Positions 1 to 54,184 of a DNA stretch of 64,000 bases are shown here, one piece after another. Source of the DNA: Chlorobiota bacterium (GTDB lineage: Bacteria; Bacteroidota; Bacteroidia; Bacteroidales; F082). Below the pieces are notes generated by a model. The model searched no databases. It was not told the DNA's origin and saw nothing but the letters and a program-made list of their open reading frames with translations. The stretch spans positions 188 to 64,187 of the forward strand of contig JAUVKF010000008.1 in NCBI GenBank assembly GCA_030596395.1. Direction: 5' to 3'. Made by a program: the position numbers and the translations under genes. Position 1 is the stretch's first letter. Each line of letters opens with the position of its first letter.

Positions 1-1332
1 ATATTTAAATTACATGAACCGCAGCATGGGATAGATGAAAGTCATCAAAAAGAGACTTATATCTATATGTTTTTTAGTTATGGCTATTATGAAAACCTGG
101 GTGGAGAGAACAATAAGCGGAAATATATACCCTTAAAATATAGCACTGGTAAAAAGATAAAACCTACTGATTGGGAAGACCGGCCTTTTTATCGAGCGAA
201 AAAAAATTCGTTTGAGGAAGCCATTTTGTTAAATTGCAGACTGGATATGCTAGAGGATGAAATCAATAAAATTTATCGGGAATACGAACAAAAAGGCTTG
301 TTACCTGATCCTGCACAGCTTAAAGAACACCTTGATCAGTTAGTAGCCAATAAAATAAAACGGCCTGTCAGGGTAATGAACGATTATATTTCAAACTTCA
401 TAGTGGAGGCCAGCCGGGGCAAAAGACTTACTGCAAAAAAAACCAGGTACCGGAAACAATCCATTAAAAATTTACAGGGATTCTATGTCCAGTTTCAAAA
501 GTATCAGAAGAGCATATCCCAAACCCTGAATTATGAACAGGTAACTGTGGAATTCTTAAAGGACTTTATTAAATATTTTACTGATAAAGGCTATAGCCAG
601 AATACAATATCAAGGCATATTAAGCACTTGAGAATGTTAATGAGAGCATCGAGAGAAGAAGGATTGCACGACAACATTGAAATTGATAGCGGGCGATTTA
701 AAGTTGAACCTGTCGAAGTAGAGCGCATTTTTTTAAATGAGGAAGAAATACAAAGACTTTACGAATTAAACCTATCTAAGGAGCCTGTTTTGGAATTGGT
801 TAGGGATGTGTTTTTAATTGGGTGTTATATAGCACAACGGTACAATGACTATCGTAATATTAAGAAAAAATTGTTGATAAAACTTGAGGATAAAAGTAAA
901 GGAATAAAAATCTTTCAGTCAAAAACAGGAAAAAGTGTATTGGTGCCTTTGAGGCCAGAAGCCGACCTTTTATTAAAAAAATACAATTACAATCTACCTC
1001 ACACCTATGAGCAATTGATTAATACGAAAATGCAAATTATAGGTGAAATGGCTGGAATTACTGAGATGAAAAAAACCAATGAAATTATTAATGGTAAAAG
1101 GATTACGAAAATGGTACCCAGGTATAAACTAATTAAAACTCATTCTGCACGGCGATCGGGTTGTACCAATATGTACCTGGCAAATATTCCAGTGAATGAA
1201 ATAATGGCAATCTCAGGTCACCAAACAGTACAGGATTTTTTAAAGTATATAAGAACGACAGAAATACAGCTTGCAAATAAATTATCCAGTCATCCATATT
1301 TTTTAAATCCCGGTTTAATAATTGCAAAATGA
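1..1332 (+). CDS. Tyrosine recombinase (phage-type integrase); 5' end probably lies outside the window
   Basis: The frame of the 67..1332 ORF stays open back to base 1 (IFKLHEPQHGIDESHQKETYIY precedes the first Met), so the N-terminus is probably cut by the window edge. KYSTGKKIKPTDW resembles the Bacteroidota integrase arm-binding N-domain. Catalytic signature in the C-terminal half: IAQRYNDY (Arg), HSARRSG (His-x-x-Arg), ISGHQT...FLKYI (His ... Tyr). Confidence 0.85.
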   Translation: MFKLHEPQHGIDESHQKETYIYMFFSYGYYENLGGENNKRKYIPLKYSTGKKIKPTDWEDRPFYRAKKNSFEEAILLNCRLDMLEDEINKIYREYEQKGLLPDPAQLKEHLDQLVANKIKRPVRVMNDYISNFIVEASRGKRLTAKKTRYRKQSIKNLQGFYVQFQKYQKSISQTLNYEQVTVEFLKDFIKYFTDKGYSQNTISRHIKHLRMLMRASREEGLHDNIEIDSGRFKVEPVEVERIFLNEEEIQRLYELNLSKEPVLELVRDVFLIGCYIAQRYNDYRNIKKKLLIKLEDKSKGIKIFQSKTGKSVLVPLRPEADLLLKKYNYNLPHTYEQLINTKMQIIGEMAGITEMKKTNEIINGKRITKMVPRYKLIKTHSARRSGCTNMYLANIPVNEIMAISGHQTVQDFLKYIRTTEIQLANKLSSHPYFLNPGLIIAK

Positions 1333-1371
1333 AAAGTTATTGATGTATAAAAATGAAAAACGCTCTTAGCA

Positions 1372-1415
1372 AACAGCCCGTAAAACTCAATCTGAAATTT
1401 ACGGGCTGTTTTATT
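1372..1415 (+). terminator. Rho-independent terminator after the integrase gene
   Basis: 13-bp perfect stem aacagcccgtaaa (1372-1384) / tttacgggctgtt (1398-1410) followed by ttatt, 40 nt after the integrase stop. Confidence 0.7.
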
Positions 1416-1466
1416 GGTTGAGATACCAAGCGTACATTGTAGGGTTGTTTGTTGTTTTCCGTAGGA

Positions 1467-2099
1467 TTATTTGTATTTATTTTTATGAATTAAAACATAA
1501 TCTGACTTAACAGGAAAAAACAGAATTGTCTTATGAAAATCATGACAGCCAACCCCAACGTCAGTGACCAATTCAATCTCATATATTTTAGATTCATCAA
1601 TTGTTGACATTTTTGCTTTAAATATAACTCTCAAATAGGGCTTCTCAATTATTACATACTTTTTTTTCATCATTTCCTGTACAGGATCATTTATAAACAT
1701 TTGAGTAAAACCACTAGTTTCCCCTGGTGGAATTATAAAATATTCATTATCAGGATTAGCCGATTCTGAACTTGAAATTTTATAATCCCCATAGAACAGT
1801 TCATGATCAACATCAAATAGTTTTATCGGTATGTTTGATTTGTTAGTATAAATTGCATTAAACCCAGAAGGGGGATTATCACAGTCTGTATTTCCTGAGA
1901 ATGTTACCCAATTGAAATCTGAAAAAACAAGAACAGGCTCTAAAAACGAACTTAGATTTTGTTCAAATGATTTTAAAACTTTAGCGGTTTGATTTGATGA
2001 ATGAATAGAATAAATAAATCCTGCAATTGCTATTAGTGCAATAGCATAAGTTGCTAAATAATTAAAAATTATAAATTTTTTGCTTAATTTTTTTTTCAT
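1467..2099 (-). CDS. Hypothetical membrane-anchored protein (islet cargo)
   Basis: 210-aa ORF. Lys-rich N-terminus plus one hydrophobic helix (FIIFNYLATYAIALIAIAGFIY). The remainder is beta-rich with no motif I recognise. Very AT-rich codon usage. Confidence 0.55.
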   Translation of the reverse strand: MKKKLSKKFIIFNYLATYAIALIAIAGFIYSIHSSNQTAKVLKSFEQNLSSFLEPVLVFSDFNWVTFSGNTDCDNPPSGFNAIYTNKSNIPIKLFDVDHELFYGDYKISSSESANPDNEYFIIPPGETSGFTQMFINDPVQEMMKKKYVIIEKPYLRVIFKAKMSTIDESKIYEIELVTDVGVGCHDFHKTILFFPVKSDYVLIHKNKYK

Positions 2100-2518
2100 T
2101 TGCGGAATTAAATTGTGTTATTCCCGCAAGTTATTAAATTAACTGCATTTTCACGACTATTTTCAACAAAAAGAAAGTTGAGGTATCATGTTATTTTGAC
2201 ATCAATCTAACATTAGGAAATGGGTTTAGGTGTTTTGTAAATATCAAAAAAAAAAAACAACACCAAGAAGCTCTTTTCCGCTTTTAAAACGAGAAGAAAT
2301 GATAAATACCTGGTGAGATATCCTGAGAAAGATGAAAAGGGTGATAACTCAATTTCATTCATGCAGTTTGCTTTAGGTGTGTTTACAATTATGGAAATGG
2401 CATTCTCACCAGATATGAAGCTGAGTGAGTTTACTGATCTGAAAACCCTTGCTGAGAATCAAGCACAGGAATATAAGAAGGCTAAAAAGACGGCAATAAG
2501 GAGGTAATCTTTTGCACT

Positions 2519-3355
2519 TTATTTTGTAAGAGCCTTCAATCCGACCATTAACATAAGTGAATCATTGAGAGACCTATACCAAAGATCTACCTCTTTTCTC
2601 CTAATGGCATTGATCAATTCTCTACTGTTTTTAAATTTATTTGTTCTAAAATCATAAATCCAATCAGTTTTTTTTTGCTGAATCCATACTATTGAAGTTG
2701 GTCCACCAATTTTATTAATATCGTTTTGGTCTTTTTCTGAGGAAGCCAGATCTTCTATATAAACTTTTATAAAAGATATAGCTTTATTAATGTCAGCATA
2801 TTTGAGAAATTGATTTACAAAAGACAAATTATTGCCGTTTTTTAAATTTATTCTATAACCAGATATTATAGAATCAATACAGTGCTTATCATACCAGTAT
2901 ATAACTGGTATAGATTTATTATACCCACATATAAATATTGTATTCGTTTGGAGGATATAGAAATCATCTCCGGATAGTTTATTTTCAGCAAATTTAAGTA
3001 ACTCATTATAGAAATTGCCGATATCAACTTCTCGGATGGTTTCTTTTTTAAAATCCTCAAAAAGACCAAAAAAACTAGTATTGTTAAATGAAAATTGACC
3101 TGACATAGCGAGTACTATATCGTTATATTGGAATAATTTAGGTGATTCATCATAATAAGCAGCCACACTTCCGTTATTATCAAAAAAAACAGCACGCGAA
3201 TCAGATCCAACTATAATTCCATCATTGCAAATAGCAGCCATAATAAGTGTTCCATGTATCTTATTATTGATCTTAGAGGAACTGCTAATTTTAATCGGAA
3301 ATAGAATAAATAAAAGGAATATAACAAAAGAATAGAAAGTGATATTGTTTTTCAT
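2519..3355 (-). CDS. Proteasome-beta/HslV-like Ntn-hydrolase fold protein with N-terminal signal/anchor
   Basis: 278-aa ORF. A hydrophobic N-terminus (FYSFVIFLLFILFPIKISS) is followed by HG|TLIMAAICNDGIIVGSDSRA...PKLFQY...MSG. This matches the proteasome-beta pattern Gly(-1)|Thr1, Asp17 (D52 here) and a Lys near position 33 (K73 here). Later, KIGGPTSIVWI resembles the SGG-plus-hydrophobic strand of the same fold. Confidence 0.5.
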   Translation of the reverse strand: MKNNITFYSFVIFLLFILFPIKISSSSKINNKIHGTLIMAAICNDGIIVGSDSRAVFFDNNGSVAAYYDESPKLFQYNDIVLAMSGQFSFNNTSFFGLFEDFKKETIREVDIGNFYNELLKFAENKLSGDDFYILQTNTIFICGYNKSIPVIYWYDKHCIDSIISGYRINLKNGNNLSFVNQFLKYADINKAISFIKVYIEDLASSEKDQNDINKIGGPTSIVWIQQKKTDWIYDFRTNKFKNSRELINAIRRKEVDLWYRSLNDSLMLMVGLKALTK

Positions 3356-3607
3356 TTAACACTAATTATGATTACACATGAAAGTTACAAAAAATTTCTA
3401 TCTTCTTTCTCAAATCATGACTAAGAATTAATCAGCAATGAATCCCTGGCACAAAAGAAGAGGTATTACAGAACCAAAGAAGGAAAAACCAGTAGAAGGC
3501 AATAAATTATTTCCACTATTGCATTGAAAGTCGGTATAAAGAAAGTGTTGGAAATATTACTGAAAACTGAAATAGTTAACAAATATTCAACCCCTTAAAC
3601 GACCCCT

Positions 3608-3649
3608 AAGAAAAAACCCGTTACTTAACATATTATTAAATAACGGGTT
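3608..3649 (-). terminator. Rho-independent terminator of tRNA-Cys
   Basis: Stem aacccgtta (3615-3623) / taacgggtt (3641-3649). Read on the minus strand it is followed by TTTTTTCTT. It lies 15 nt downstream of the tRNA 3' end. Confidence 0.65.
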
Positions 3650-3663
3650 AGTATTTTTATAAG

Positions 3664-3734
3664 AGGTACCGAGCGGATTCGAACCGCTGTACATGGTTTT
3701 GCAGACCACTGCCTAGCCACTCGGCCACGGTACC
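3664..3734 (-). tRNA. tRNA-Cys (anticodon GCA)
   Basis: The reverse complement GGTACCGTGGCCGAGTGGCTAGGCAGTGGTCTGCAAAACCATGTACAGCGGTTCGAATCCGCTCGGTACCT folds as a cloverleaf. Elements: 7-bp acceptor GGTACCG/CGGTACC; anticodon stem GTGGT/ACCAT with loop CTGCAAA (anticodon GCA); T-arm AGCGG-TTCGAAT-CCGCT; discriminator U (the Cys identity base). CCA is not encoded. Confidence 0.93.
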
Positions 3735-3778
3735 AAAATAAAATCAGGAGCGCAAAATTAACAAAATATCAGAATAAT

Positions 3779-4186
3779 TTAATCTGATTTTCTTGATAGC
3801 CTCTTCATCCAGAACCAATGGAAAAGAAAAAGGAGGATTGTAATGATAACCAGAAGCCCATTTACAATTATCGAACGAAAAGCATCATGTTTGACCTTTG
3901 AAATAGCATCTTGTTTGGCAGCCTCATACATCGAATTAAGTGTTACATCATCAAGGGTGAGTCCGTGTTCAGGATCCAGCGACTTCATAATGTCAACTTT
4001 ATAATTGTCAAAAGAAGCCAGGCTCGGAGAGTCCTTTCCATAAGTGCGGTAGGCATTTATCGGATCAGTAAGATCCATTAACGAATAAACCATTGAAGTG
4101 GCGCAAATCAAAAATGTAATTACCGCGACAATACATAACGCATAACCATAAATCATCTGAATTTTCTGGGTTTTGTCCTTTTCCAT
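3779..4186 (-). CDS. Hypothetical two-helix membrane protein
   Basis: 135-aa ORF with hydrophobic helices near both ends (YALCIVAVITFLICATSMVY; IIVNGLLVIITILLFLFHWFW). No recognisable catalytic motif. Confidence 0.5.
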   Translation of the reverse strand: MEKDKTQKIQMIYGYALCIVAVITFLICATSMVYSLMDLTDPINAYRTYGKDSPSLASFDNYKVDIMKSLDPEHGLTLDDVTLNSMYEAAKQDAISKVKHDAFRSIIVNGLLVIITILLFLFHWFWMKRLSRKSD

Positions 4187-4266
4187 AGTTGTAAATTTTT
4201 GGTTTGAGATTATAATAACTAACGAAATTACAACATGACAAATAAGAAGTCAAGCTTTCATGGTGA

Positions 4267-4458
4267 TTATTTGCCCGATTTAGCAAGGGTTTTTAAACAT
4301 TCAAGGCATAAACAGGAATCAAACTCTTTGTTAATTTCATCAAGGACAAGGGGCGGAACATCAATCTCAAAACACCAGCATTTGCCCGATTTACCGCAAT
4401 CGAATTTATTGCCACAACGTGGACAGATTTCTTTTTCAACCAGTTTCTTATTCATCAA
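4267..4458 (-). CDS. Cysteine-rich CWC-family small protein
   Basis: 63 aa with CPRCGNKFDCGKSGKCWCFE...CLCLEC, the Cys pattern I associate with the cysteine-rich CWC family. Its ATG overlaps the folB stop (ATGA at 4455-4458). Confidence 0.6.
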   Translation of the reverse strand: MMNKKLVEKEICPRCGNKFDCGKSGKCWCFEIDVPPLVLDEINKEFDSCLCLECLKTLAKSGK

Positions 4459-4805
4459 TAGTCGAGTTCAAGGCTAACAAAATCAATCTTGCCACCCAGG
4501 GGTGGGTTTAATTTTCTGATCTTTATTCGGGCGCTAATAATTACTGGAAACTCATCCCGGATACGGTTTAAAATTCTTCTTCCTACATGCTCAAGTAATT
4601 TCGAAGGCGTTTTCATCTCCACTTTTACCAGCGAATAGATTGTTTGATAATTTACTGTATTGTGTAAATCATCTGTCGATTCTGCTTTAGATGTATCCGT
4701 TTTCAAAAACAGGTCAATACTAAATTTGGTACCAATAATCGCCTCTTCTTTAAAACAACCATGGTAAGCGAAAAACTCCATTCCTTCAATAGAAATCACC
4801 GACAT
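4455..4805 (-). CDS. folB: Dihydroneopterin aldolase
   Basis: 116 aa. The N-terminal IEGMEFFAYHGCFKEEAIIGTKF and the overall size are typical of FolB. Confidence 0.75.
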   Translation of the reverse strand: MSVISIEGMEFFAYHGCFKEEAIIGTKFSIDLFLKTDTSKAESTDDLHNTVNYQTIYSLVKVEMKTPSKLLEHVGRRILNRIRDEFPVIISARIKIRKLNPPLGGKIDFVSLELDY

Positions 4806-46716: not shown

Positions 46717-47874
46717 ATGAATTTATTTGAAGGAAATATTTATTCAAAGCTTCCGGGTACCGGCACTTCCATATTTGCTGTGATGACAGGCCTGGCAAAA
46801 CAATATAATGCTGTTAATTTGTCACAGGGTTTTCCTGATTTTCCGGTTTCGCAGGAATTAATGGATAAGGTGTATTTCTATATGCAAGATGGTAATAATC
46901 AATATGCTCCCATGCCAGGAACACCTGGTCTGAGGAAGGCCATTTCTAAGATGTTTAAGCTAAACCATGGCGCGAATTACAATCCTGACTCGGAAGTCAA
47001 TATAACCGCCGGGGCTACCCAGGCTTTGTTTACAGCCATCTCCGCATTTATTAGTCACGGAGATGAGGTAATTGTTTTTGAACCGGCTTACGATAGTTAT
47101 GTGCCTGCCGTTGTTGTGAATGGCGGAATAGTCAGGTATAGCGAATTGCACTACCCTGATTATCGAATTAAATGGGATGAAGTGAAAAAACTGGTGAACG
47201 AAAAAACAAAAATGATAATAATAAATTCTCCACACAATCCTACCGGAAGCGTTTTGTACGAAGAGGATTTGAAGGCACTCGAACATCTTTTGAAAGGCAC
47301 TGATATTGTTGTGTTAAGCGATGAAGTTTACGAACACCTGATATTTGACGGGATACAACACCAAAGCGTTTGCCGGTTTCCCGACCTGTCACAACGAAGC
47401 CTTCTGGTGGGATCTTTCGGAAAAACTTTTCATGCAACAGGTTGGAAAATCGGGTTTGTGCTAGCACCCGAAAACCTGATGAAGGAATTCAGGAAAGTAC
47501 ACCAGTTTGTTGTATTTGCCGTGAATACACCTATCCAAATGGCTATTGGAGAATATCTGAATAATCCGGAAAACTATTCCGGTTTAGGCGAATTCTTTCA
47601 ACAAAAACGAGACTTTTTTGTAAATGCAGTTAAGGCATCAAGGTTTAAGGTGATTCCATCGTATGGCACTTATTTTCAATTGCTTGATTACAGCAATATC
47701 TCCGAGAAGAATGAGATGGAATTTGCTGAAGAACTGGTCAGTGAACACGGCATCGCATCGGTGCCGGTTTCACCGTTTTATCATGATAACAAAAGCAATA
47801 AAGCATTGCGATTTTGTTTTGCTAAAGAAGAATCAACCTTAACCAGGGCAGCAGGAATATTATGCAGGATTTAA
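46717..47874 (+). CDS. PLP-dependent aminotransferase, class I (methionine/glutamine aminotransferase YbdL-like)
   Basis: 385 aa. NLSQGFPDF, NSPHNPTG, and the PLP-lysine context SFGKTFHATGWKIG. Confidence 0.8.
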   Translation: MNLFEGNIYSKLPGTGTSIFAVMTGLAKQYNAVNLSQGFPDFPVSQELMDKVYFYMQDGNNQYAPMPGTPGLRKAISKMFKLNHGANYNPDSEVNITAGATQALFTAISAFISHGDEVIVFEPAYDSYVPAVVVNGGIVRYSELHYPDYRIKWDEVKKLVNEKTKMIIINSPHNPTGSVLYEEDLKALEHLLKGTDIVVLSDEVYEHLIFDGIQHQSVCRFPDLSQRSLLVGSFGKTFHATGWKIGFVLAPENLMKEFRKVHQFVVFAVNTPIQMAIGEYLNNPENYSGLGEFFQQKRDFFVNAVKASRFKVIPSYGTYFQLLDYSNISEKNEMEFAEELVSEHGIASVPVSPFYHDNKSNKALRFCFAKEESTLTRAAGILCRI

Positions 47875-48674
47875 AAGTATTGTGCTTACAATTGGACCTG
47901 GTTTGGGAAGACCCGGCCAAAAACCGGGAATTGTTTGAAATCAAGATCATAAACCATGTTGATGGGCACGACCTGATCATTTTACCTGAAACATTTACGA
48001 CAGGATTCCCGGATTTTCCTTCATTTATAAGTGAATCCATCGAAGGGGAAACCGTACAATGGATGGCCGGAGTGGCAAAAAAGGTCAATGCGGTGATTAC
48101 CGGTAGTCTGATAATCAATAACGATGGAAAATATACCAACACGCTGGTATGGATGCCGCCTGATGGTAATTTTTCAACTTACGATAAGCGCCACGTTTTT
48201 TCGATGGCAGGAGAAAATGAGGTAATTGAATACGGGCAAGAAGAGTTAATTATAGAATTAAACGGCTGGAAAATTAAACCCATGATCTGTTATGATCTGC
48301 GGTTCCCGGTATGGTCGAAAAATAAACTTGACAATCAGAAAAACTATGAATATGACCTTGCCCTTTACATTGCCAACTGGCCAGCCGTAAGAAACTATCC
48401 CTGGACTCAATTGCTTATTGCCCGCGCCATCGAAAACCTGGCCTATGTGATTGGTGTAAACCGAATTGGCTACGACAAAACCGGTAAACTCTACAGTGGC
48501 AATTCGATGGTCATTGACCCGAAAGGAAAAATACTGGCCGAAGCAGAAGAGGGTAAAGAGCGTGCACTAACAGAAATATTATCATATTCGGAGTTGCAGG
48601 CATTCCGGAAAAAATTCAATGTGGGTTTGGATTGGGATGGGTTTAATTTAAATGATTTGAACAAAATAATTTAG
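47862..48674 (+). CDS. Nitrilase-superfamily omega-amidase (YafV-like)
   Basis: Glu-Lys-Cys triad contexts ILPETF, YDKRHVF, MICYDLRFP. Overlaps the aminotransferase gene by 13 nt. Confidence 0.8.
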   Translation: MQDLKVLCLQLDLVWEDPAKNRELFEIKIINHVDGHDLIILPETFTTGFPDFPSFISESIEGETVQWMAGVAKKVNAVITGSLIINNDGKYTNTLVWMPPDGNFSTYDKRHVFSMAGENEVIEYGQEELIIELNGWKIKPMICYDLRFPVWSKNKLDNQKNYEYDLALYIANWPAVRNYPWTQLLIARAIENLAYVIGVNRIGYDKTGKLYSGNSMVIDPKGKILAEAEEGKERALTEILSYSELQAFRKKFNVGLDWDGFNLNDLNKII

Positions 48675-48843
48675 GTAAAATGAAATACTTTACAACTATT
48701 TCAGCATTATTTCTAAAATATGTTGTTAGCATATTTGGACAAATACTTAATAGAATTGTAGCATTTAATACAGTTTAATCACTATTGAAATTATAACAAT
48801 TTATTATATGGTCTTAGAAACGTATAGTGTTAAATTTATTTGA

Positions 48844-49173
48844 ATGGAATATAAAACGAGGCAACTAAGAAGAGAAGACCTCCCCAAAAATAGAAGATCG
48901 GCAGAGTCATTGCATTTACCGGTTCTATTTACCGGTCAATTAATGTACGTCTGTGATATTCACTTTACAGATGATGGTTTGTGTTGGCTTGAACAGGCTA
49001 AAGGAATTCCTACGCCTATTGCGAAATTGGATTTGGTTCTAAGCAGGAGTTCAAGTGAGATCAAGCAAGATATAAAAAGAAATAAACTAAAATTGAAACA
49101 AAATTCTGATCAAAAAGATATAATTTACAATAAGCTCAAACAACTTCAACGCGAATTAATGGAAACTATTTAG
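48844..49173 (+). CDS. Hypothetical small protein (islet ORF)
   Basis: 109-aa ORF in the AT-rich islet with a basic/coiled C-terminal half. Convergent with the MTase-HIT gene, stops 4 nt apart. No motif recognised. Confidence 0.35.
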   Translation: MEYKTRQLRREDLPKNRRSAESLHLPVLFTGQLMYVCDIHFTDDGLCWLEQAKGIPTPIAKLDLVLSRSSSEIKQDIKRNKLKLKQNSDQKDIIYNKLKQLQRELMETI

Positions 49174-49177
49174 ACCC

Positions 49178-50035
49178 TTATTTAGAAAAGATATTGCGAA
49201 TTCCACCACCAGCCTCAGGCAAATCGACATTAAATCTTGGTATGACATAAATATAAGCGTGTTCAACAGCTTGACCTCCCGCTTTTCCTATATTCATTCC
49301 GATATTAAACCCTTCAGCATTAAGTTTTTTTCTGAGCGTTTCTTGAACTCTATTTACGACCAACCAGCAAGCTGTTTGTTCATGTTGCGATAATTCAAAA
49401 TAATTCGCTATTTTTCTTTTTGGGATAACCAAAGTATGACCGGAAGATATAGGAAATTCTTCAACAATGGCAAATGCAGTTGCAGACTCAGTTATTAAAA
49501 TCTTTTCATCGATTCCTTTAAAAAATGGACTGATATTGACATTGCCTTTATTTAAGTGAGTGTAATGTTGATATTGATATATTTCGCAGTTCTCCGTTCG
49601 GAAAATGCTCTTGTAAGGTAATATAACATTGCATTGATAAGTTTTTGCTTTATATTTTGGATTAAATAAAAACCCGTTTCTTTTTATGTCACGTCTGACA
49701 GAAAAAAAAGCTTTTCCACCAGGCTTTAGTAATTCTGAAATTGCCATTAAAACGTGTGATTGTTCTTCTGGTAATAATACGTTTAGCACATAATTGCAGA
49801 TTATAGTATCAAATTTAGCTTTCGGATAGTTGGGCTTGTAATGTGGATCAAAACCAATAACTGCAAAGTCTTTTTCTTGAAGAAAGGCAACGTCTATCCC
49901 TAGACCACAGCCGAAATCAAGTACAGAACCATTGATTAATGCACGTTCCCATAGAGCTTTAACAGGTAAAGAAGGTTTCTTCCTCTCTTTAATTGTTAGA
50001 TGAGAATTTGGATTATCTTTTGATTGATAAATCAT
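49178..50035 (-). CDS. Fusion protein: class I SAM-methyltransferase domain + HIT-superfamily domain with a non-canonical triad
   Basis: N-terminal half: motif I VLDFGCGLGIDVAFL, acidic loop VIGFD, ICNYVLNVL, LKPGGKAFF. C-terminal half: HIT fold signature FAIVEEFPISSGHTLVIPKRK...NIGKAGGQAVEHAYIYVIPR. ATG 50035 overlaps the HNH gene stop (ATGA), which I prefer to the TTG at 50050 used by the ORF track. Confidence 0.7.
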   Translation of the reverse strand: MIYQSKDNPNSHLTIKERKKPSLPVKALWERALINGSVLDFGCGLGIDVAFLQEKDFAVIGFDPHYKPNYPKAKFDTIICNYVLNVLLPEEQSHVLMAISELLKPGGKAFFSVRRDIKRNGFLFNPKYKAKTYQCNVILPYKSIFRTENCEIYQYQHYTHLNKGNVNISPFFKGIDEKILITESATAFAIVEEFPISSGHTLVIPKRKIANYFELSQHEQTACWLVVNRVQETLRKKLNAEGFNIGMNIGKAGGQAVEHAYIYVIPRFNVDLPEAGGGIRNIFSK

Positions 50036-51135
50036 TTCTGATAAACCCAATTTTCTTGAAACCCCATATTCTTAGCTATTTGTAATTGTGGTTTTAAATT
50101 ATCCTGCATTCGAGTTGTAAATTCACCTTGCTTCATTGTATTTATCTCGCTAAGTGTTTGGTGAAAAAGTACTGAGTAATCCTCCAACAATTTGCTGTGT
50201 CCAGACATCTTCATTAGTACTGTGTGAAACGCATCGTACTGTAACGCAACATAGTCGTTGATGTAATTTACTGCTGGCAGATTATCGCTTTTCGAACTAT
50301 TCACTTCTTTTGGCGTTGGTACAAGGTTCCATAACTGGTCGTGCCCGGTAAAACTCCAAGGCAAGAAGTGGTCTATGCTATAACTGTCCTTCAGTATTGG
50401 TTGAGCTGAATAGATACACAATATGCTGACTTTGGTTGCGATGTATATATCCCAGAACTTTCTGGCATTCGTTAACTGACGCTGCTTTGGTGAAAACAGT
50501 TTTGTCGGTATATTCGCCACATTTGGATTGCGCTTTTGCAAATAGTTTATCAAATGCCAATAGGTAAACCCTTTCAGTATCTGCATGTGTTGCAGTAGGT
50601 AATCCTTCCATAGCGGACTAATCTCAATCGTATTGCCATCAGTAAATCGGTACAAACTGAGCTTGCGTACGTTTATAAAATCTCTATCAGCTCGTTCCAT
50701 TATTGCATTATTTACAAATTGGTCTTGCATTCCTCTCAGTTCGTCCGCAAACCAAGGCCGTAAAAAACGCTGGGGCACCCATCTGGATAACTTATGGGTC
50801 AGTTGACTTATCTCATACTTTTCTTTGTTTCGACCGAGTTGCTTTATCAATTCTGGTTTTTTAATGTCCTTAGGGTAACCAAACTTTTGTTGAATCTGTT
50901 TCACTGCATTTTCAAACTGGTCTTGCCTCCCAAAAGATAGCTTGAAGTAATTAATTGGATACCATACTTCTCCAATCATTTCAATTATTAAATCATCAAT
51001 ATTGATTTTCGTTACGCCAATTTTCACTTTTTCTAAAATGGCCAACAACCAGTAAAACTTATAAGAATTTGTAATATCGTTAAATGCAGCTGACAAATGA
51101 TTAACGGGTAAATCTGTGGATTTAGGCAGTTTCAT
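50032..51135 (-). CDS. HNH (Cas9-type, HNH_4-like) endonuclease with uncharacterised N-terminal domain
   Basis: The C-terminal motif SIDHFLPWSFTGHDQLWNLVPTPKEVNSSKSDNLP aligns residue-for-residue in pattern with the Cas9 HNH core (D-H-x-x-P-x-S-F...N-x-V...N-x-x-K-S-D-N-x-P). The N-terminal ~230 aa (LSAAFNDITNSYKFYWLLAILEKV...) match no domain I can name. Start taken at Met 51135 (MKLPKS). Confidence 0.7.
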   Translation of the reverse strand: MKLPKSTDLPVNHLSAAFNDITNSYKFYWLLAILEKVKIGVTKINIDDLIIEMIGEVWYPINYFKLSFGRQDQFENAVKQIQQKFGYPKDIKKPELIKQLGRNKEKYEISQLTHKLSRWVPQRFLRPWFADELRGMQDQFVNNAIMERADRDFINVRKLSLYRFTDGNTIEISPLWKDYLLQHMQILKGFTYWHLINYLQKRNPNVANIPTKLFSPKQRQLTNARKFWDIYIATKVSILCIYSAQPILKDSYSIDHFLPWSFTGHDQLWNLVPTPKEVNSSKSDNLPAVNYINDYVALQYDAFHTVLMKMSGHSKLLEDYSVLFHQTLSEINTMKQGEFTTRMQDNLKPQLQIAKNMGFQENWVYQK

Positions 51136-51321
51136 GATAAATATTCTTTTTTTAGCCAATATTGTCTGCAAGGAAAGGAATCGTGACCAGAGAAGGTTAA
51201 AGCATAGTTCATATTGGTAAAATTAAAAACATCTTGGTGTTAATTACTCCTTAGTTCCTTTCTAAATTCGAATTTAAACAAACGAAATGTAAATGACTGA
51301 CCGGATGATTTTCAAATATGC

Positions 51322-51329
51322 TAATTTTG
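51322..51329 (+). promoter_or_regulatory. Bacteroidota -7 promoter box (TAnnTTTG) upstream of trkA
   Basis: TAATTTTG, 21 nt upstream of ATG 51350. Confidence 0.3.
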
Positions 51330-51349
51330 CCACGCAAAATGATTGAGTT

Positions 51350-52708
51350 ATGAATATCATTATCGCCGGTGACGGTGAAGTGGGATTTTACCTGGCCCAG
51401 GCCCTTGTTGATTCAAATCACAATATTACCATTGTTGACCCCCATGAGGAACTGCTTAAAATGGTTGAGGCGCATACCGATTTGATGACCATTGTTGGTG
51501 AATCGAATTCGGTTGGTGTATTAAAGCAGGCCAATGTTGATAAGGCCGATCTGGTTATATCAGTCCTTCATGATGAGCAAACCAATATTCTCACGGCTAT
51601 CCTGGCAAAAAAACTCGGCGCAAAATCTACCATTGCCCGCGTAAACACCCTGGAAAACCTCAGCGAAGGAAATAAAAAAATTTACGAAGAACTGGGCATT
51701 GATTTTTTGATCTCCCCCGAAGATATTGCCGGTCACGAAGTAATCAATATCCTCAACCGGCCGGAAGCCACAGAAATATTTGAATTATCCGACGGAAAAC
51801 TTTCTGTATTCCTGATCAAACTGGAGGAAGGGGCGCCCGTTCTCAACAAAACCTTAAGCGCTATTGCTTCTGAAATTGGCTATTTGGACTTCAGGGCAGT
51901 TGCTATTCACAGGGGAATGGACACTTTTATACCAACTGGTGATACAATTTTTCTTCCGAACGACCTGGTGTATGTGATTACCAAGCCGGAAGCTATGAGC
52001 GAATTATTAATGTTGGGGGGTAAACAAAAGATGGACATCAGCAATATCATGCTTGTTGGTGGTGGGCGGGTCGGAAAAGTGGTTGCCAAACGCATGGAGA
52101 ATGATCTGAATATCAAACTTGTAGAAAACGACAGGGAACGTTGTATGCGGCTTACCGATTTGCTTGATGAATCTCTGATCATCAATGGGGATGCACGCGA
52201 CATTGACCTGATGGAAGACGAAGGCATTGAAAATGTTGATGCTTTTATAGCAGTTACCAATAGTGCCGAAACAAATATTCTCACCTGCCTGCATGCTAAA
52301 AAATATGGTGTTAAAAAGACAATTGCGCTGGTTGAGAACATCAATTATATTGAAATTTCACAGAATATTGGAATAGATACCATCATCAACAAAAAACTGA
52401 TTGCAGCCAGCTATATTCTCAAATATTCCATGGGTGATGAAGTGGCTTCATTGAAATGTTTAAGCGGGATAAATGCTGATATTGTTGAGCTTGTTGCACG
52501 TCCGGGATCTCCTGTTACCAAAAAACTGATTATGGAATTAAATATGCCCGAAGGAGCTATTATTGGTGGAATAATTCGGGGTGACGAATCTTTTATTGCG
52601 ATTGGCAATTTCCAGATAGAAGTTAATGATAAGGTAGTTGTATTTGCCCTGCCAGGTACTACCCGGAAAGTAGAAAAGTTGTTTATGAAAGGATCATTTT
52701 CCTTTTAA
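51350..52708 (+). CDS. trkA: Trk potassium uptake system NAD-binding subunit TrkA
   Basis: Two tandem RCK/Rossmann units (IIIAGDGEVG..., IMLVGGGRVGKVVA...). 452 aa. Followed by trkH. Confidence 0.88.
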   Translation: MNIIIAGDGEVGFYLAQALVDSNHNITIVDPHEELLKMVEAHTDLMTIVGESNSVGVLKQANVDKADLVISVLHDEQTNILTAILAKKLGAKSTIARVNTLENLSEGNKKIYEELGIDFLISPEDIAGHEVINILNRPEATEIFELSDGKLSVFLIKLEEGAPVLNKTLSAIASEIGYLDFRAVAIHRGMDTFIPTGDTIFLPNDLVYVITKPEAMSELLMLGGKQKMDISNIMLVGGGRVGKVVAKRMENDLNIKLVENDRERCMRLTDLLDESLIINGDARDIDLMEDEGIENVDAFIAVTNSAETNILTCLHAKKYGVKKTIALVENINYIEISQNIGIDTIINKKLIAASYILKYSMGDEVASLKCLSGINADIVELVARPGSPVTKKLIMELNMPEGAIIGGIIRGDESFIAIGNFQIEVNDKVVVFALPGTTRKVEKLFMKGSFSF

Positions 52709-52720
52709 TCCTCCCGGTAA

Positions 52721-54184
52721 ATGTCTGAAAAGCGATTTATAAATATTTCGATTGTTGCCAGGGTGCTGAGCTTTCTGATGATTGTTGAGGCTCTTTTTAT
52801 GTTGACTGGCCTGCCTTTTGCCTGGTATTATAACGAATCATTCTGGCCTCTTTTAATCTCAGCGGTTATTACCGGAACAACGGGTAGCATTATTTGGTTT
52901 TCTATAAAACCAAAGATCAAGAAAAAAGGAATTGGTAAACGAGAAGGCTATCTGATCGTAACTTTAAGCTGGATTGTCATTTCCGGTTTCGGCACATTAC
53001 CTTATATCATCAGTGGTGCAATTCCATCCTTTACAAATGCTTATTTTGAAACCATTTCGGGTTTTACCACAACTGGAGCTTCAATTCTGAATGACATTGA
53101 AATGCTGCCGAATAATATCCTGTATTGGCGCGCCATGACACAATGGATGGGCGGCATGGGAATCATTGTTTTAACCGTAGCGGTACTTCCGTTTTTAGGG
53201 ATTGGTGGTATGCAATTATTGGTTGCCGAAATGCCCGGCATCACACCTGATAAATTGCATCCACGGATAACAGCCACAGCTAAAAGGTTGTGGGGAATAT
53301 ATGTGATATTTACACTAGCAGAATTGCTTTTACTTTGGCTTGGCGAAATGGATTTTTTCGATGCAATATGCCATGCATTTGCTACCATGGCCACAGGTGG
53401 ATTTTCAACCAAAAACGATAGTATTGCCGGATTCTCTTCTTATACACAATATGTGATCGTGTTTTTTATGATCCTTGCCGGTACAAATTTTACATTACAC
53501 TATTTAGGCTTACACCGGAAATTCAGGAAAGCGTGGAGCAATCAGGAATTCAAAGTTTATTTTTGGATAATCTTATTGGTAACCCTATTTATCTCTTTAG
53601 GACTGATTATATCCCGGGAAACCGGCATTGAAAACTCCTTCCGAGATGCTCTGTTTTCAGTTGTTTCAATTCTAACGACAACCGGGTTTGTAAACAGCAA
53701 TTATTTGCTGTGGCCATCTTTTTTATGGATGTTATTATTTGTGCTTATGTTTGTTGGAGGCAGTGCAGGGTCTACCGGGGGAGGCATGAAAATCGTCAGG
53801 CATTTATTGCTTTTTAAAAATTCATGGATTGAATTAAAAAGAGCCATGCATCCTAGCGCGATCATTCCGGTAAAATTTAATGGAAAAGCCGTTTCGCAGG
53901 ATATTATTTTTAATGTAATGGCCTTCTTTTTAATTTACATGATTGTTTTTGCCCTGGGGACGGTTGTAATGTCGATGGTTGGATTGGATTTTGAAACTTC
54001 GGTGGGAGCCACTATTGCTACTCTGGGTAATATAGGCCCAGGAATTGGTGGTGTTGGTCCGGTTGAGAATTATGCTTTTTTCGGCCCTTTTGCAAAATGG
54101 TTTTTATCATTTCTTATGCTACTTGGCCGATTGGAATTATTTACCGTATTGATAATTATTTCGCCTGCATTCTGGAAATCCTGA
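52721..54184 (+). CDS. trkH: Trk potassium uptake system membrane subunit TrkH
   Basis: 487 aa polytopic protein with repeated selectivity-filter-like TTTGAS / ATGGFS / TTTGF / GNIGPG loops. Confidence 0.88.
   Translation: MSEKRFINISIVARVLSFLMIVEALFMLTGLPFAWYYNESFWPLLISAVITGTTGSIIWFSIKPKIKKKGIGKREGYLIVTLSWIVISGFGTLPYIISGAIPSFTNAYFETISGFTTTGASILNDIEMLPNNILYWRAMTQWMGGMGIIVLTVAVLPFLGIGGMQLLVAEMPGITPDKLHPRITATAKRLWGIYVIFTLAELLLLWLGEMDFFDAICHAFATMATGGFSTKNDSIAGFSSYTQYVIVFFMILAGTNFTLHYLGLHRKFRKAWSNQEFKVYFWIILLVTLFISLGLIISRETGIENSFRDALFSVVSILTTTGFVNSNYLLWPSFLWMLLFVLMFVGGSAGSTGGGMKIVRHLLLFKNSWIELKRAMHPSAIIPVKFNGKAVSQDIIFNVMAFFLIYMIVFALGTVVMSMVGLDFETSVGATIATLGNIGPGIGGVGPVENYAFFGPFAKWFLSFLMLLGRLELFTVLIIISPAFWKS

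Follow-up and report, generated by a model that had tools for sequence, protein, structure and literature searches.

Which system do a nuclease and a methyltransferase-HIT fusion belong to when they stand together between unrelated housekeeping genes? The question is raised by a short islet in the window analysed here (one contiguous stretch of 64,000 nucleotides), where the gene of an HNH nuclease overlaps the gene of the fusion protein (49178-50035, minus strand). The three ORFs of the islet had been placed correctly in an earlier note (Table 1), and the ATGA overlap of nuclease and fusion at 50032-50035, the domain calls (Pfam HIT and Methyltransf_23 in one protein, Cas9-type HNH_4 in the other) and the housekeeping character of the flanking genes (Aminotran_1_2, CN_hydrolase and TrkA) all hold. 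Our best explanation as a whole, to which we give a probability of roughly 0.6, is that the islet is a decayed Ssp-type DNA-phosphorothioation (PT) operon, that the pair kept in it is a widespread PT accessory, and that the two proteins would work as a PT-aware nuclease with a processing partner.

The islet is a true insertion, as had been suspected. A close relative (L088) aligns with window positions 47475-48645 and 51306-53012 at 91-95% nucleotide identity and has only 107 bp between the two blocks; its CN_hydrolase gene is followed directly by trkA, i.e., the site is empty. The insertion point is the 3′ end of the CN-hydrolase gene. No convincing direct repeats flank the islet in the window. 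In another relative, L083, the 3′ end of CN-hydrolase is directly repeated over 127 bp (92%). The islet had also been described as AT-rich: its GC content (0.343) is indeed lower than the window mean (0.372, sd 0.027), but modestly so, at about 1 sd below it, with 15% of same-size windows at or under the islet value and the HNH gene alone at 0.375. Such a deviation is weak evidence by itself, so that we discarded composition as proof of foreign origin and took the empty site instead as evidence of insertion. A scan for sigma-70 promoters and terminators was uninformative, since promoter-like matches were rarer than in shuffled sequences; sigma-70 is also the wrong promoter type for Bacteroidota.

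Table 1. Features of the islet, in window coordinates.
Feature	Position	Strand	Basis
Islet, stretch lacking in a close relative	48646..51305	.	L088 alignment
orf109, small lineage-specific ORF	48844..49173	+	Inside islet
HIT domain of fusion (Pfam aa 178-269), degenerate, C-terminus truncated	49178..49540	-	Pfam HIT
Methyltransferase domain (fusion aa 1-165), minimal class I SAM fold, PT-associated TIGR04096 type	49541..50035	-	Pfam, NCBIfam, hhalign
HNH nuclease, 367 aa	50032..51135	-	Pfam HNH_4
HNH_4 core, Cas9-type, aa 242-287	50275-50412	-	Pfam HNH_4 E 5.7e-12
N-terminal domain of HNH protein, alpha-helical, family-specific	aa 1-~235	-	AF2 model, family alignment
sspB′ remnant, mini-ORF MNYALTFSGHDSFPCRQYWLKKEYLS*, N-terminus of SspB/DUF4007	51132..51212	-	tblastn + HMM

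The small ORF orf109, which had been counted with the module, does not belong to it. None of the 80 related loci described below encodes a homologue, its 90%-identity cluster has two members, its only counterpart at ~90% identity is in the sister strain L090, and no Pfam, NCBIfam or PADLOC family matches it above threshold. An alpha/beta-hydrolase gene occupies its position in L083 and L094.

The origin of the islet is recorded directly upstream of the HNH gene, in 26 codons that hold the first 24 codons of sspB and whose TGA overlaps the HNH start codon (ATGA at 51132-51135). This remnant is 65% identical to residues 11-30 of the SspB of L003 (tblastn, E 4e-5), and of the 2414 fragments given by six-frame translation of the window, it is the only one retrieved by a profile HMM built from 10 SspB sequences (E 5.9e-8, the runner-up reaching 1.1). 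Searches of the whole 64 kb with the other Ssp seeds gave no match besides this fragment, and a PADLOC scan (E ≤ 1) found no SspE (DUF262+DUF1524) or SspFGH partner among the three ORFs; the intact sspA, sspB, sspC and sspD that an Ssp system requires are absent from the window. The earlier statement that no dnd or ssp genes are present is thus not entirely right, having overlooked the remnant. Because the remnant is coupled to the HNH start, we read the islet as a decayed Ssp PT operon, in which the sulfur-writing genes (sspB, sspC/D) were deleted, leaving sspB′ translationally coupled to the HNH and methyltransferase-HIT module. An identical sspB′-HNH junction is carried by L089, and L083 displays less advanced decay at the same chromosomal site, with the order sspB′-sspD-HNH-fusion.

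Beyond this site, the pair is linked to PT systems across many phyla. Among the 80 genome loci related to the pair that form our comparison set, 16 have it beside or inside intact PT loci, of the Ssp, Dnd(+DndFGH), Pbe and BREX-4-like types, and five further "solitary" loci carry sspB pseudogene fragments directly upstream of HNH, which brings the PT-linked loci to 21/80. In genomes at large, the frequency is 3.0% for sspBCD and 4.3% for dndCD (PMC12914056). In sspB-sspC-sspD(-sspA) operons, relatives of the pair stand in the place of the effector, a resemblance to the known SspABCD-SspE and SspABCD-SspFGH systems, with SspB, SspC and SspD (PADLOC E 4e-103, 0 and 4e-91) encoded 0-82 bp upstream of HNH on the same strand. 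The gene order in L030, L033 and L046 is DndC(-DndD)-HNH-fusion, with DndH and DndG on the opposite strand (DndF was seen there in L033); PbeA and PbeC are found in L003, and PglZ in L004. Family-wide, the pair is an Ssp/Dnd-associated module, operonic with PT writers in independent lineages. Although it shares these five loci with DndFGH, PbeABCD or BREX type 4, it has no homology to them and is an additional module rather than a variant; since it coexists with DndFGH in Dnd loci, calling it "the" restriction partner would be too simple.

Approximately three quarters of the 80 loci have no PT gene within 8 kb of the pair, and the pair repeatedly outlives PT genes that were once adjacent. In the window genome, the HNH gene is still maintained by purifying selection: comparison with L089 gives a dN/dS of 0.09 and comparison with L083 one of 0.12, and the former value spans a divergence (dS 0.61) younger than the ssp deletion. 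Retention by selection after writer loss indicates that the function is not strictly dependent on host PT from adjacent genes. This persistence in several independent lineages, together with the majority of loci devoid of nearby PT genes, agrees with a PT-dependent type IV-like restriction, in which the HNH protein would cut incoming PT-DNA and the fusion would process the sulfur-bearing products, with no host PT needed. Autoimmunity could then explain the repeated deletion of ssp genes beside the pair, and ScoMcrA-type PT-binding HNH enzymes, also encoded within Dnd loci (PMC10853773), offer a precedent. On the other hand, the pair lies immediately downstream of intact writers on the same strand in several loci, where PT cutting would destroy the host's own DNA if neither sequence context nor a partner shielded it, and no SBD or SRA domain was detectable in the HNH protein by sequence and fold searches. 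We regard type IV-like restriction as possible, if rather unlikely.

The comparison with these PT-binding enzymes is instructive. ScoMcrA/SprMcrA-type HNH endonucleases (SBD-SRA-HNH) are PT-linked and occur by themselves as well as within PT-modification loci (PMC10853773, PMC7461809), and the nuclease of the pair shares this behavior; it differs from them in its Cas9-like HNH_4 core, in having no recognisable SBD (wHTH) or SRA domain and in its methyltransferase-HIT partner gene. Residues 1-235 might nevertheless contain a divergent PT-binding fold. The core, with its D-H and Asn residues, places the protein among the HNH (His-Me finger) nucleases, and all invariant columns of the family are kept, including D255-H256, N270 and N279. 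The AF2 model of the protein has a pLDDT of 92. Its N-terminal domain has no sequence match in the PDB and only noise in Pfam, and Foldseek with the model returned matches to the HNH core only, with no convincing fold match for the N-domain. Kinship of the N-domain with SspB/DUF4007 (hhalign probability 0.4%) and of the N-domain or whole protein with a TIGR04096-type protein (0.2%) was considered and rejected. SspE, like the pair, is an effector with an HNH-type nuclease; the HNH protein, in contrast, matches none of the PADLOC models of SspE, SspF, SspG and SspH, the PADLOC scan retrieving only Cas9-type HNH cores and PDC-M01B, and its N-domain is without Pfam or PDB kin. We know of no Ssp partner with a SAM methyltransferase or HIT domain.

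The same 80 loci bear out the defence-like module that the earlier note suspected, and show it to be a conserved two-gene unit, associated with defence and spread by horizontal transfer: in 73 of them, the gene immediately upstream of the fusion encodes an HNH relative and ends at the fusion start, and no other gene family is common to more than 10. The fusion forms 1291 clusters at 90% identity and has at least 505 matches in a one-genome-per-species collection; the HNH N-domain forms 1334 clusters at 50% identity. Identity of the pair across phyla is 55-60%, and its flanks are variable. In L092, it adjoins an IS3 element. Neighbouring genes are rich in ResIII, PLD, DUF3427, UvrD, PIN and TOTE families. 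In a viral search of 2.9 million contigs (IMG/VR), three weak, methyltransferase-only matches were obtained; a phage-borne origin was discarded, as the pair is essentially absent from IMG/VR and GenBank phages, isolated HIT or methyltransferase matches aside. In phage phiSASD1, a HIT gene adjoins a PAPS-reductase gene.

The pair also appears to fall outside named systems. No PADLOC 2.0 model exists for either protein and none of that release matched at full length; the matches were short and local, namely mad2 (MADS) at positions 354-397, ThsC (Thoeris) over the HIT core and PDC-M01B (E 0.004). Full-text searches of openly available papers retrieved no description of the pair. Within the searchable literature and PADLOC 2.0, the HNH and methyltransferase-HIT pair thus stands as new, and its loci show it to be a widespread accessory module of PT systems.

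Compactness, variable flanks and identity across phyla, the many non-PT defence genes nearby and the mobile elements (IS3 in L092, and an IS630 element with R-M genes in L081, beside an HNH+HIT variant that has no methyltransferase) could also be features of a PT-independent stand-alone defence, or of a selfish nuclease with its immunity gene in the manner of toxin-antitoxin pairs, the PT neighbours being coincidental. We find this distinctly unlikely: of the PT-specific neighbours, PT genes recur most often, in operons with the pair and not just close to it, and the methyltransferase domain independently belongs to a PT-associated family. The toxin-antitoxin form fails because each gene is found without the other, HNH without the fusion in L084 and apparently also in L089, and the fusion without HNH in five cyanobacterial loci (L056, L071, L076, L079 and L080).

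The methyltransferase domain matches Pfam Methyltransf_23 (E 1.2e-13) and NCBIfam TIGR04096 (E 1.9e-14), the latter with 53.3 bits under a cutoff of 150 and over model positions 5-82 of 478 only. Over 124 columns, hhalign aligns it at 39% identity with a 675-aa TIGR04096-type protein (L082; probability 98%); that protein is encoded beside sspABCD on plasmid CP049030. The two share an N-terminal arm, motif I and the segments G(Y/W)DPxY and YVLNV..PEE, as well as a location beside ssp genes, whereas the L082 protein differs in its flanking regions and gives no match to Pfam HIT. Judging from these alignments, the domain is homologous to TIGR04096, and the protein is not a member of that family, for which our searches of the accessible literature found no characterisation. 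The possible relation to dnd-associated methyltransferases mentioned in the earlier note was therefore well founded. The domain is still under purifying selection in the window genome (dN/dS 0.09), with 1/61 conserved positions deviating, and its fold of 165 aa appears in the model to lack strand 3.

Translational coupling of nuclease and methyltransferase genes is what first brings classical restriction-modification to mind, with the methyltransferase methylating bases and so shielding the host from HNH. The fusion has no Pfam match to N6_Mtase, N6_N4_Mtase or DNA_methylase, i.e., to N6, N4 or C5 DNA methyltransferases, and reading of the sequence, alignment and model revealed no DPPY/PCQ motif or target-recognition domain. 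Moreover, the L081 variant dispenses with the methyltransferase and L084 has HNH without the fusion. With either gene occurring alone and a PT context, the idea of a free-standing restriction-modification-like system, put forward at first, is not sustained, and we hold it to be very improbable.

The HIT domain is well supported (Pfam E 6.7e-18), and it resembles Fhit, Ap4A phosphorylase and Hint in fold and matches HIT proteins of the PDB in sequence, with E values as low as 1.6e-20. Like the HIT hydrolases Hint, Fhit, Ap4A phosphorylase and aprataxin, the family keeps HxHxH (108/113 homologues); it differs from them in its fusion with a methyltransferase and its coupling with a nuclease. In the window copy, the triad reads H259-A-Y261-I-Y263 (49247-49261), the central nucleophile His being replaced by Tyr, and the HxHxHxx motif with its nucleophile expected of a catalytically active HIT protein is missing. 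The active site of this copy is thus predicted to be dead; the intact triad assumed previously does not exist, and the proposed H264A mutant has no target. Further decay is visible in 10/38 conserved positions deviating, against about one in the background, and in a dN/dS of 0.75 against L090. We rejected HIT decay as a consequence of PT-writer loss, since loci with an sspB remnant retain HxHxH and the triad is degenerate in L020 and L034, where ssp is intact; it characterises the clade to which the window belongs. The triad was lost several times, even in these ssp-intact loci, which makes HIT catalysis dispensable in some lineages.

P-S and P-adenylate bond cleavage is chemistry known for Hint, Fhit and aprataxin, and DNA-end cleaning is established for aprataxin and Tdp2/APE1. 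HINT1 converts dNMPS to dNMP and H2S (PMC8775712). Two domain arrangements are relevant here. One polypeptide (P0362) joins an EEP phosphoesterase, a methyltransferase, the N-domain and HNH, and the fusion of L003 has an additional MTES_1575/DUF559 endonuclease domain; going by such fusions, the pair may act on DNA as one machine, a point that we count in favor of our best explanation. The swap of HIT for EEP in P0362, between two classic DNA-end-cleaning folds, also suits a role in PT maintenance, turnover or repair, which would remove host PT sites that are damaged, misplaced or abortive (adenylated or oxidised), or rid them of the modification, HNH incising and HIT or EEP acting as an aprataxin/Tdp2-like end cleaner. 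Coexistence with complete restriction partners (DndFGH, PbeA/C, PglZ), the HIT gene beside PAPS-reductase in phiSASD1 and the bonds that HIT enzymes cleave are in line with it. Selection retains the pair where adjacent writers were lost, its distribution is patchy and horizontally spread with defence-island neighbours, and HIT catalysis disappears in ssp-intact loci, all of which speak against repair, and we judge it unlikely.

Returning to the decayed Ssp operon with its retained accessory pair, we hypothesize that the HNH protein would be the DNA-cutting effector and that its private helical N-domain would pick the target, probably by recognising whether the DNA carries PT or has a lesion related to it. 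On the same DNA, the methyltransferase-HIT protein would act through its SAM domain, alkylating a nucleophile, with the PT sulfur as the obvious candidate, and through its HIT domain, a putative phosphoesterase for P-S or P-adenylate bonds. From domain chemistry and context we thus infer that the N-domain chooses the target, that PT is S-methylated and that HIT cleaves P-S. More speculatively, and as something of a long shot, methyltransferase-HIT could be the first enzyme to read or erase PT in DNA by chemical means: S-methylation would yield a labile triester, the HIT His (or the EEP of P0362) would cleave P-S, with demodification or strand scission as the outcome, and the coupled HNH would provide PT-directed restriction or turnover. 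If true, such an eraser or reader would be a new biochemical layer common to Ssp, Dnd, Pbe and BREX-4 systems.

To our knowledge, PT is the only natural modification of the DNA backbone, the characterised PT partners are few (DndFGH, SspE, SspFGH, PbeABCD, DndI and SBD-HNH enzymes), and how cells sense, limit and remove PT is poorly understood. The pair is very common, occurs in four kinds of PT locus and is absent from the PADLOC 2.0 catalogue, and beside the nuclease it brings together two enzymes of a kind known for chemistry (soft-nucleophile alkylation and P-S/P-adenylate cleavage) that fits a backbone sulfur. Its commonness, PT setting and fitting chemistry make it a concrete candidate for PT-specific processing or restriction. 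For annotation, "orphan" HNH/methyltransferase-HIT islets such as that of the window may be regarded as footprints of lost PT systems.

The 2.7-kb islet between the CN-hydrolase gene and trkA is a genuine insertion. In L088, a metagenomic relative with 92-95% nucleotide identity, CN_hydrolase is followed by trkA with nothing else between, and 107 bp stand in place of window positions 48646-51305. The visible AT-richness described in the earlier note is weak (GC is 0.343, the window averages 0.372 with sd 0.027, and 15% of same-size stretches in the window are as low), but the insert it proposed is real despite this weak contrast. The window CN hydrolase C-terminus differs from the empty-site allele and is 6 aa longer. 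L088 also carries a window segment in inverted orientation (table); the junction falls within the aminotransferase gene, of which 111 aa are left in L088. The arrangement reflects either a true inversion separating these close relatives or a chimeric metagenome contig. The lowest-GC part of the window (about 1-4500) resembles an element integrated at a tRNA gene: a Bacteroidota-type tyrosine integrase (67-1332, +; Arm-DNA-bind_5, Phage_int_SAM_5 and Phage_integrase domains) is accompanied by two family-less ORFs (1467-2099 and 2519-3355) adjoining tRNA-Cys (3663-3734, -).

Features of the islet and of related loci
Feature	Location	Strand	Remark
orf109	48844-49173	+	ORF in islet
Methyltransferase-HIT fusion gene	49178-50035	-	Pfam: HIT + Methyltransf_23
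HNH gene	50032-51135	-	Pfam: HNH_4 core
Extra HNH_2-type genes	L016 5843-6739, 8883-9626; L023 191-1201, 2062-2784; L061 6003-6725		
Inverted block	L088 1085-6929 vs window 58861-53014		alignment
Aligned block	L088 6940-8110 vs window 47475-48645		alignment

The three islet ORFs had been placed correctly, including the ATGA at 50032-50035 where the HNH stop overlaps the fusion start, and Pfam bore out the domain calls. One protein combines a HIT domain (aa 178-269, 6.7e-18) with a class I SAM methyltransferase (Methyltransf_23, 1.2e-13); the other has a Cas9-type HNH_4 core (aa 242-287, 5.7e-12), and its aa 1-240 are assigned to no Pfam family. AF2 predicts both structures with high confidence (pLDDT 88, and 92 for HNH). 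The HIT domain is similar to Fhit, Ap4A phosphorylase and Hint, and the methyltransferase has a minimal Rossmann fold; for the mainly alpha-helical HNH N-domain, sequence and fold searches gave no recognisable relative.

The islet descends from a DNA phosphorothioation (PT) operon, of which it is a relic. Ssp proteins from related loci, used as queries against the window, revealed that 51212-51132 (-), in the "intergenic" stretch directly upstream of the HNH gene, encodes MNYALTFSGHDSFPCRQYWLKKEYLS*, the highly conserved N-terminus of SspB (DUF4007), 65% identical to aa 11-30 of SspB from the related locus L003 (E 4e-5). Among all 2414 six-frame fragments of the window, a profile from ten SspB sequences matches this 26-codon remnant alone (E 5.9e-8; next best 1.1). 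Its TGA overlaps the HNH ATG, so it is still translationally coupled to the nuclease. The earlier statement that the window holds no dnd or ssp genes had overlooked this remnant.

The fusion has 1291 relatives among 90%-identity clusters, 55-60% identical across Chloroflexota, Ignavibacteria, Bacteroidota, Balneolales and Cyanobacteria; 2.9 million viral contigs and the GenBank phages essentially lack it. A one-genome-per-species scan gave at least 600 candidate stretches, at least 505 of them encoding a fusion relative. In the best 80 of these, an HNH relative ends at the fusion start in 73, in line with the proposed co-occurrence; clustering of all flanking ORFs found no further gene common to more than 10 of the 80. 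The HNH N-domain family comprises 1334 clusters at 50% identity, and nearly all members are 360-380 aa, which makes the domain essentially private to this nuclease. Either gene can occur without the other, and five cyanobacterial loci (L056, L071, L076, L079, L080) have the fusion without any HNH partner; N-terminal sequences suggest ATPase genes beside it in L076 and L056. In Balneolaceae-type loci a variant of the module comprises three or four genes: one or two additional nuclease genes of the HNH_2 type, matching PADLOC model PDLC04132 (up to 6e-99), flank the fusion.

Few gene families recur beside the pair. They are DUF4007 (SspB), a large ATPase, a class-V aminotransferase (SspA) and PAPS reductase, and PADLOC identifies SspB (4e-103), SspC (E 0) and SspD (4e-91). 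The ssp genes lie on the HNH strand, 0-82 bp upstream of HNH, as in locus L020 (sspB-sspC-sspD-HNH-fusion). DndC precedes the pair in L030, L033 and L046, joined by a DndD-like ATPase in the latter two; DndH and DndG lie on the opposite strand, and so does DndF, seen in L033. PbeA and PbeC accompany the pair in L003, and PglZ in L004, as in BREX type 4. Intact PT genes occur in 16 of the best 80 loci (of at least 505), and in five further "solitary" loci pseudogene fragments of sspB sit directly upstream of HNH (E 1.8e-31 to 0.006). Across genomes, frequencies are 3.0% for sspBCD and 4.3% for dndCD (PMC12914056). A separate line of evidence comes from the methyltransferase domain, which is homologous (hhalign 98%, 39% identity) to the core region of a 675-aa protein beside sspABCD on plasmid CP049030, a [quoted passage not shown], and matches NCBIfam TIGR04096 below cutoff. 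The earlier note's tentative link to dnd-associated methyltransferases was correct. Two PT loci hold additional conflict-system genes: a TOTE-type AEP primase-helicase downstream of the pair (L020 9199-12018) and a Fic adenylyltransferase between sspC and HNH (L072 5681-6814).

Three relatives hold the module at the window's chromosomal site, beside CN_hydrolase. L083 retains sspB' (with stop), sspD, an HNH 70% identical in amino acids to the window's and a frameshifted fusion; copies of the CN-hydrolase 3' end, forming a direct repeat of 127 bp (92%; L083 1-127 and 4549-4675), bracket its PT-relic island and suggest site-specific integration into this 3' end. L094 keeps HNH together with a degenerate fusion. 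L089 shows the sspB'/HNH junction exactly as in the window, and the ssp deletion is therefore older than their split; its apparent lack of the fusion and orf109 is deduced from the final 52 bp of a 1.5-kb contig. The arms of an inverted repeat (21 nt, 81%; window 48638-48658, CN-hydrolase 3' end; 50029-50049, HNH/fusion junction) lie at the breakpoints of this apparent deletion. Since that split (dS 0.61), HNH dN/dS is 0.09, comparable to CN hydrolase (0.10) and TrkA (0.05).

The window copy is partly decayed. Its HIT triad is broken (H-A-Y-I-Y, 49247-49261; HxHxH in 108 of 113 homologues), and the domain is weakly constrained (dN/dS 0.75; 10 of 38 conserved positions changed), whereas the methyltransferase domain is constrained like HNH (0.09; 1 of 61). 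The entire window clade shows this decay, which does not stem from writer loss: loci with sspB remnants keep HxHxH and the ssp-intact L020 and L034 have lost it.

Architectural variants argue for joint action of the enzymes on DNA. In P0362, a single 824-aa relative, all parts are fused and HIT is replaced by another phosphoesterase (EEP phosphoesterase, methyltransferase, N-domain, HNH); the L003 fusion has an additional MTES_1575/DUF559 endonuclease domain, and on a Hymenobacter plasmid the HNH gene is followed by a stand-alone HIT gene, adjoining an R-M system. HIT enzymes such as aprataxin and Hint cut P-adenylate bonds. P-S bonds of nucleoside phosphorothioates are likewise cut by HIT enzymes (PMC8775712). 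In phage phiSASD1, a HIT gene adjoins a PAPS-reductase gene, independent of the pair.

Taken together, the two genes form a conserved module that is host-side and PT-associated. It persists under selection after loss of the PT writers, its genes can be solitary and it coexists with DndFGH, which rules out both a classical "cut unless modified" enzyme and a toxin-antitoxin pair. Possible roles are restriction, either stimulated by PT or dependent on it (type IV-like), and the maintenance or erasure of PT. The HNH protein would be the DNA-cutting effector, its private N-domain may pick targets in relation to PT, and the methyltransferase-HIT protein would process sulfur-bearing or adenylated phosphate in DNA. 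Checked with PADLOC, as the earlier note had proposed, the two proteins of the pair match PADLOC 2.0 system models in domain cores only, and no description of the pair was found in openly searchable full text, including recent surveys of Dnd and BREX-4 loci by comparative genomics. By PADLOC 2.0 and the open literature, we rate the pair as a new variant of an already known kind of system, PT-based defence.
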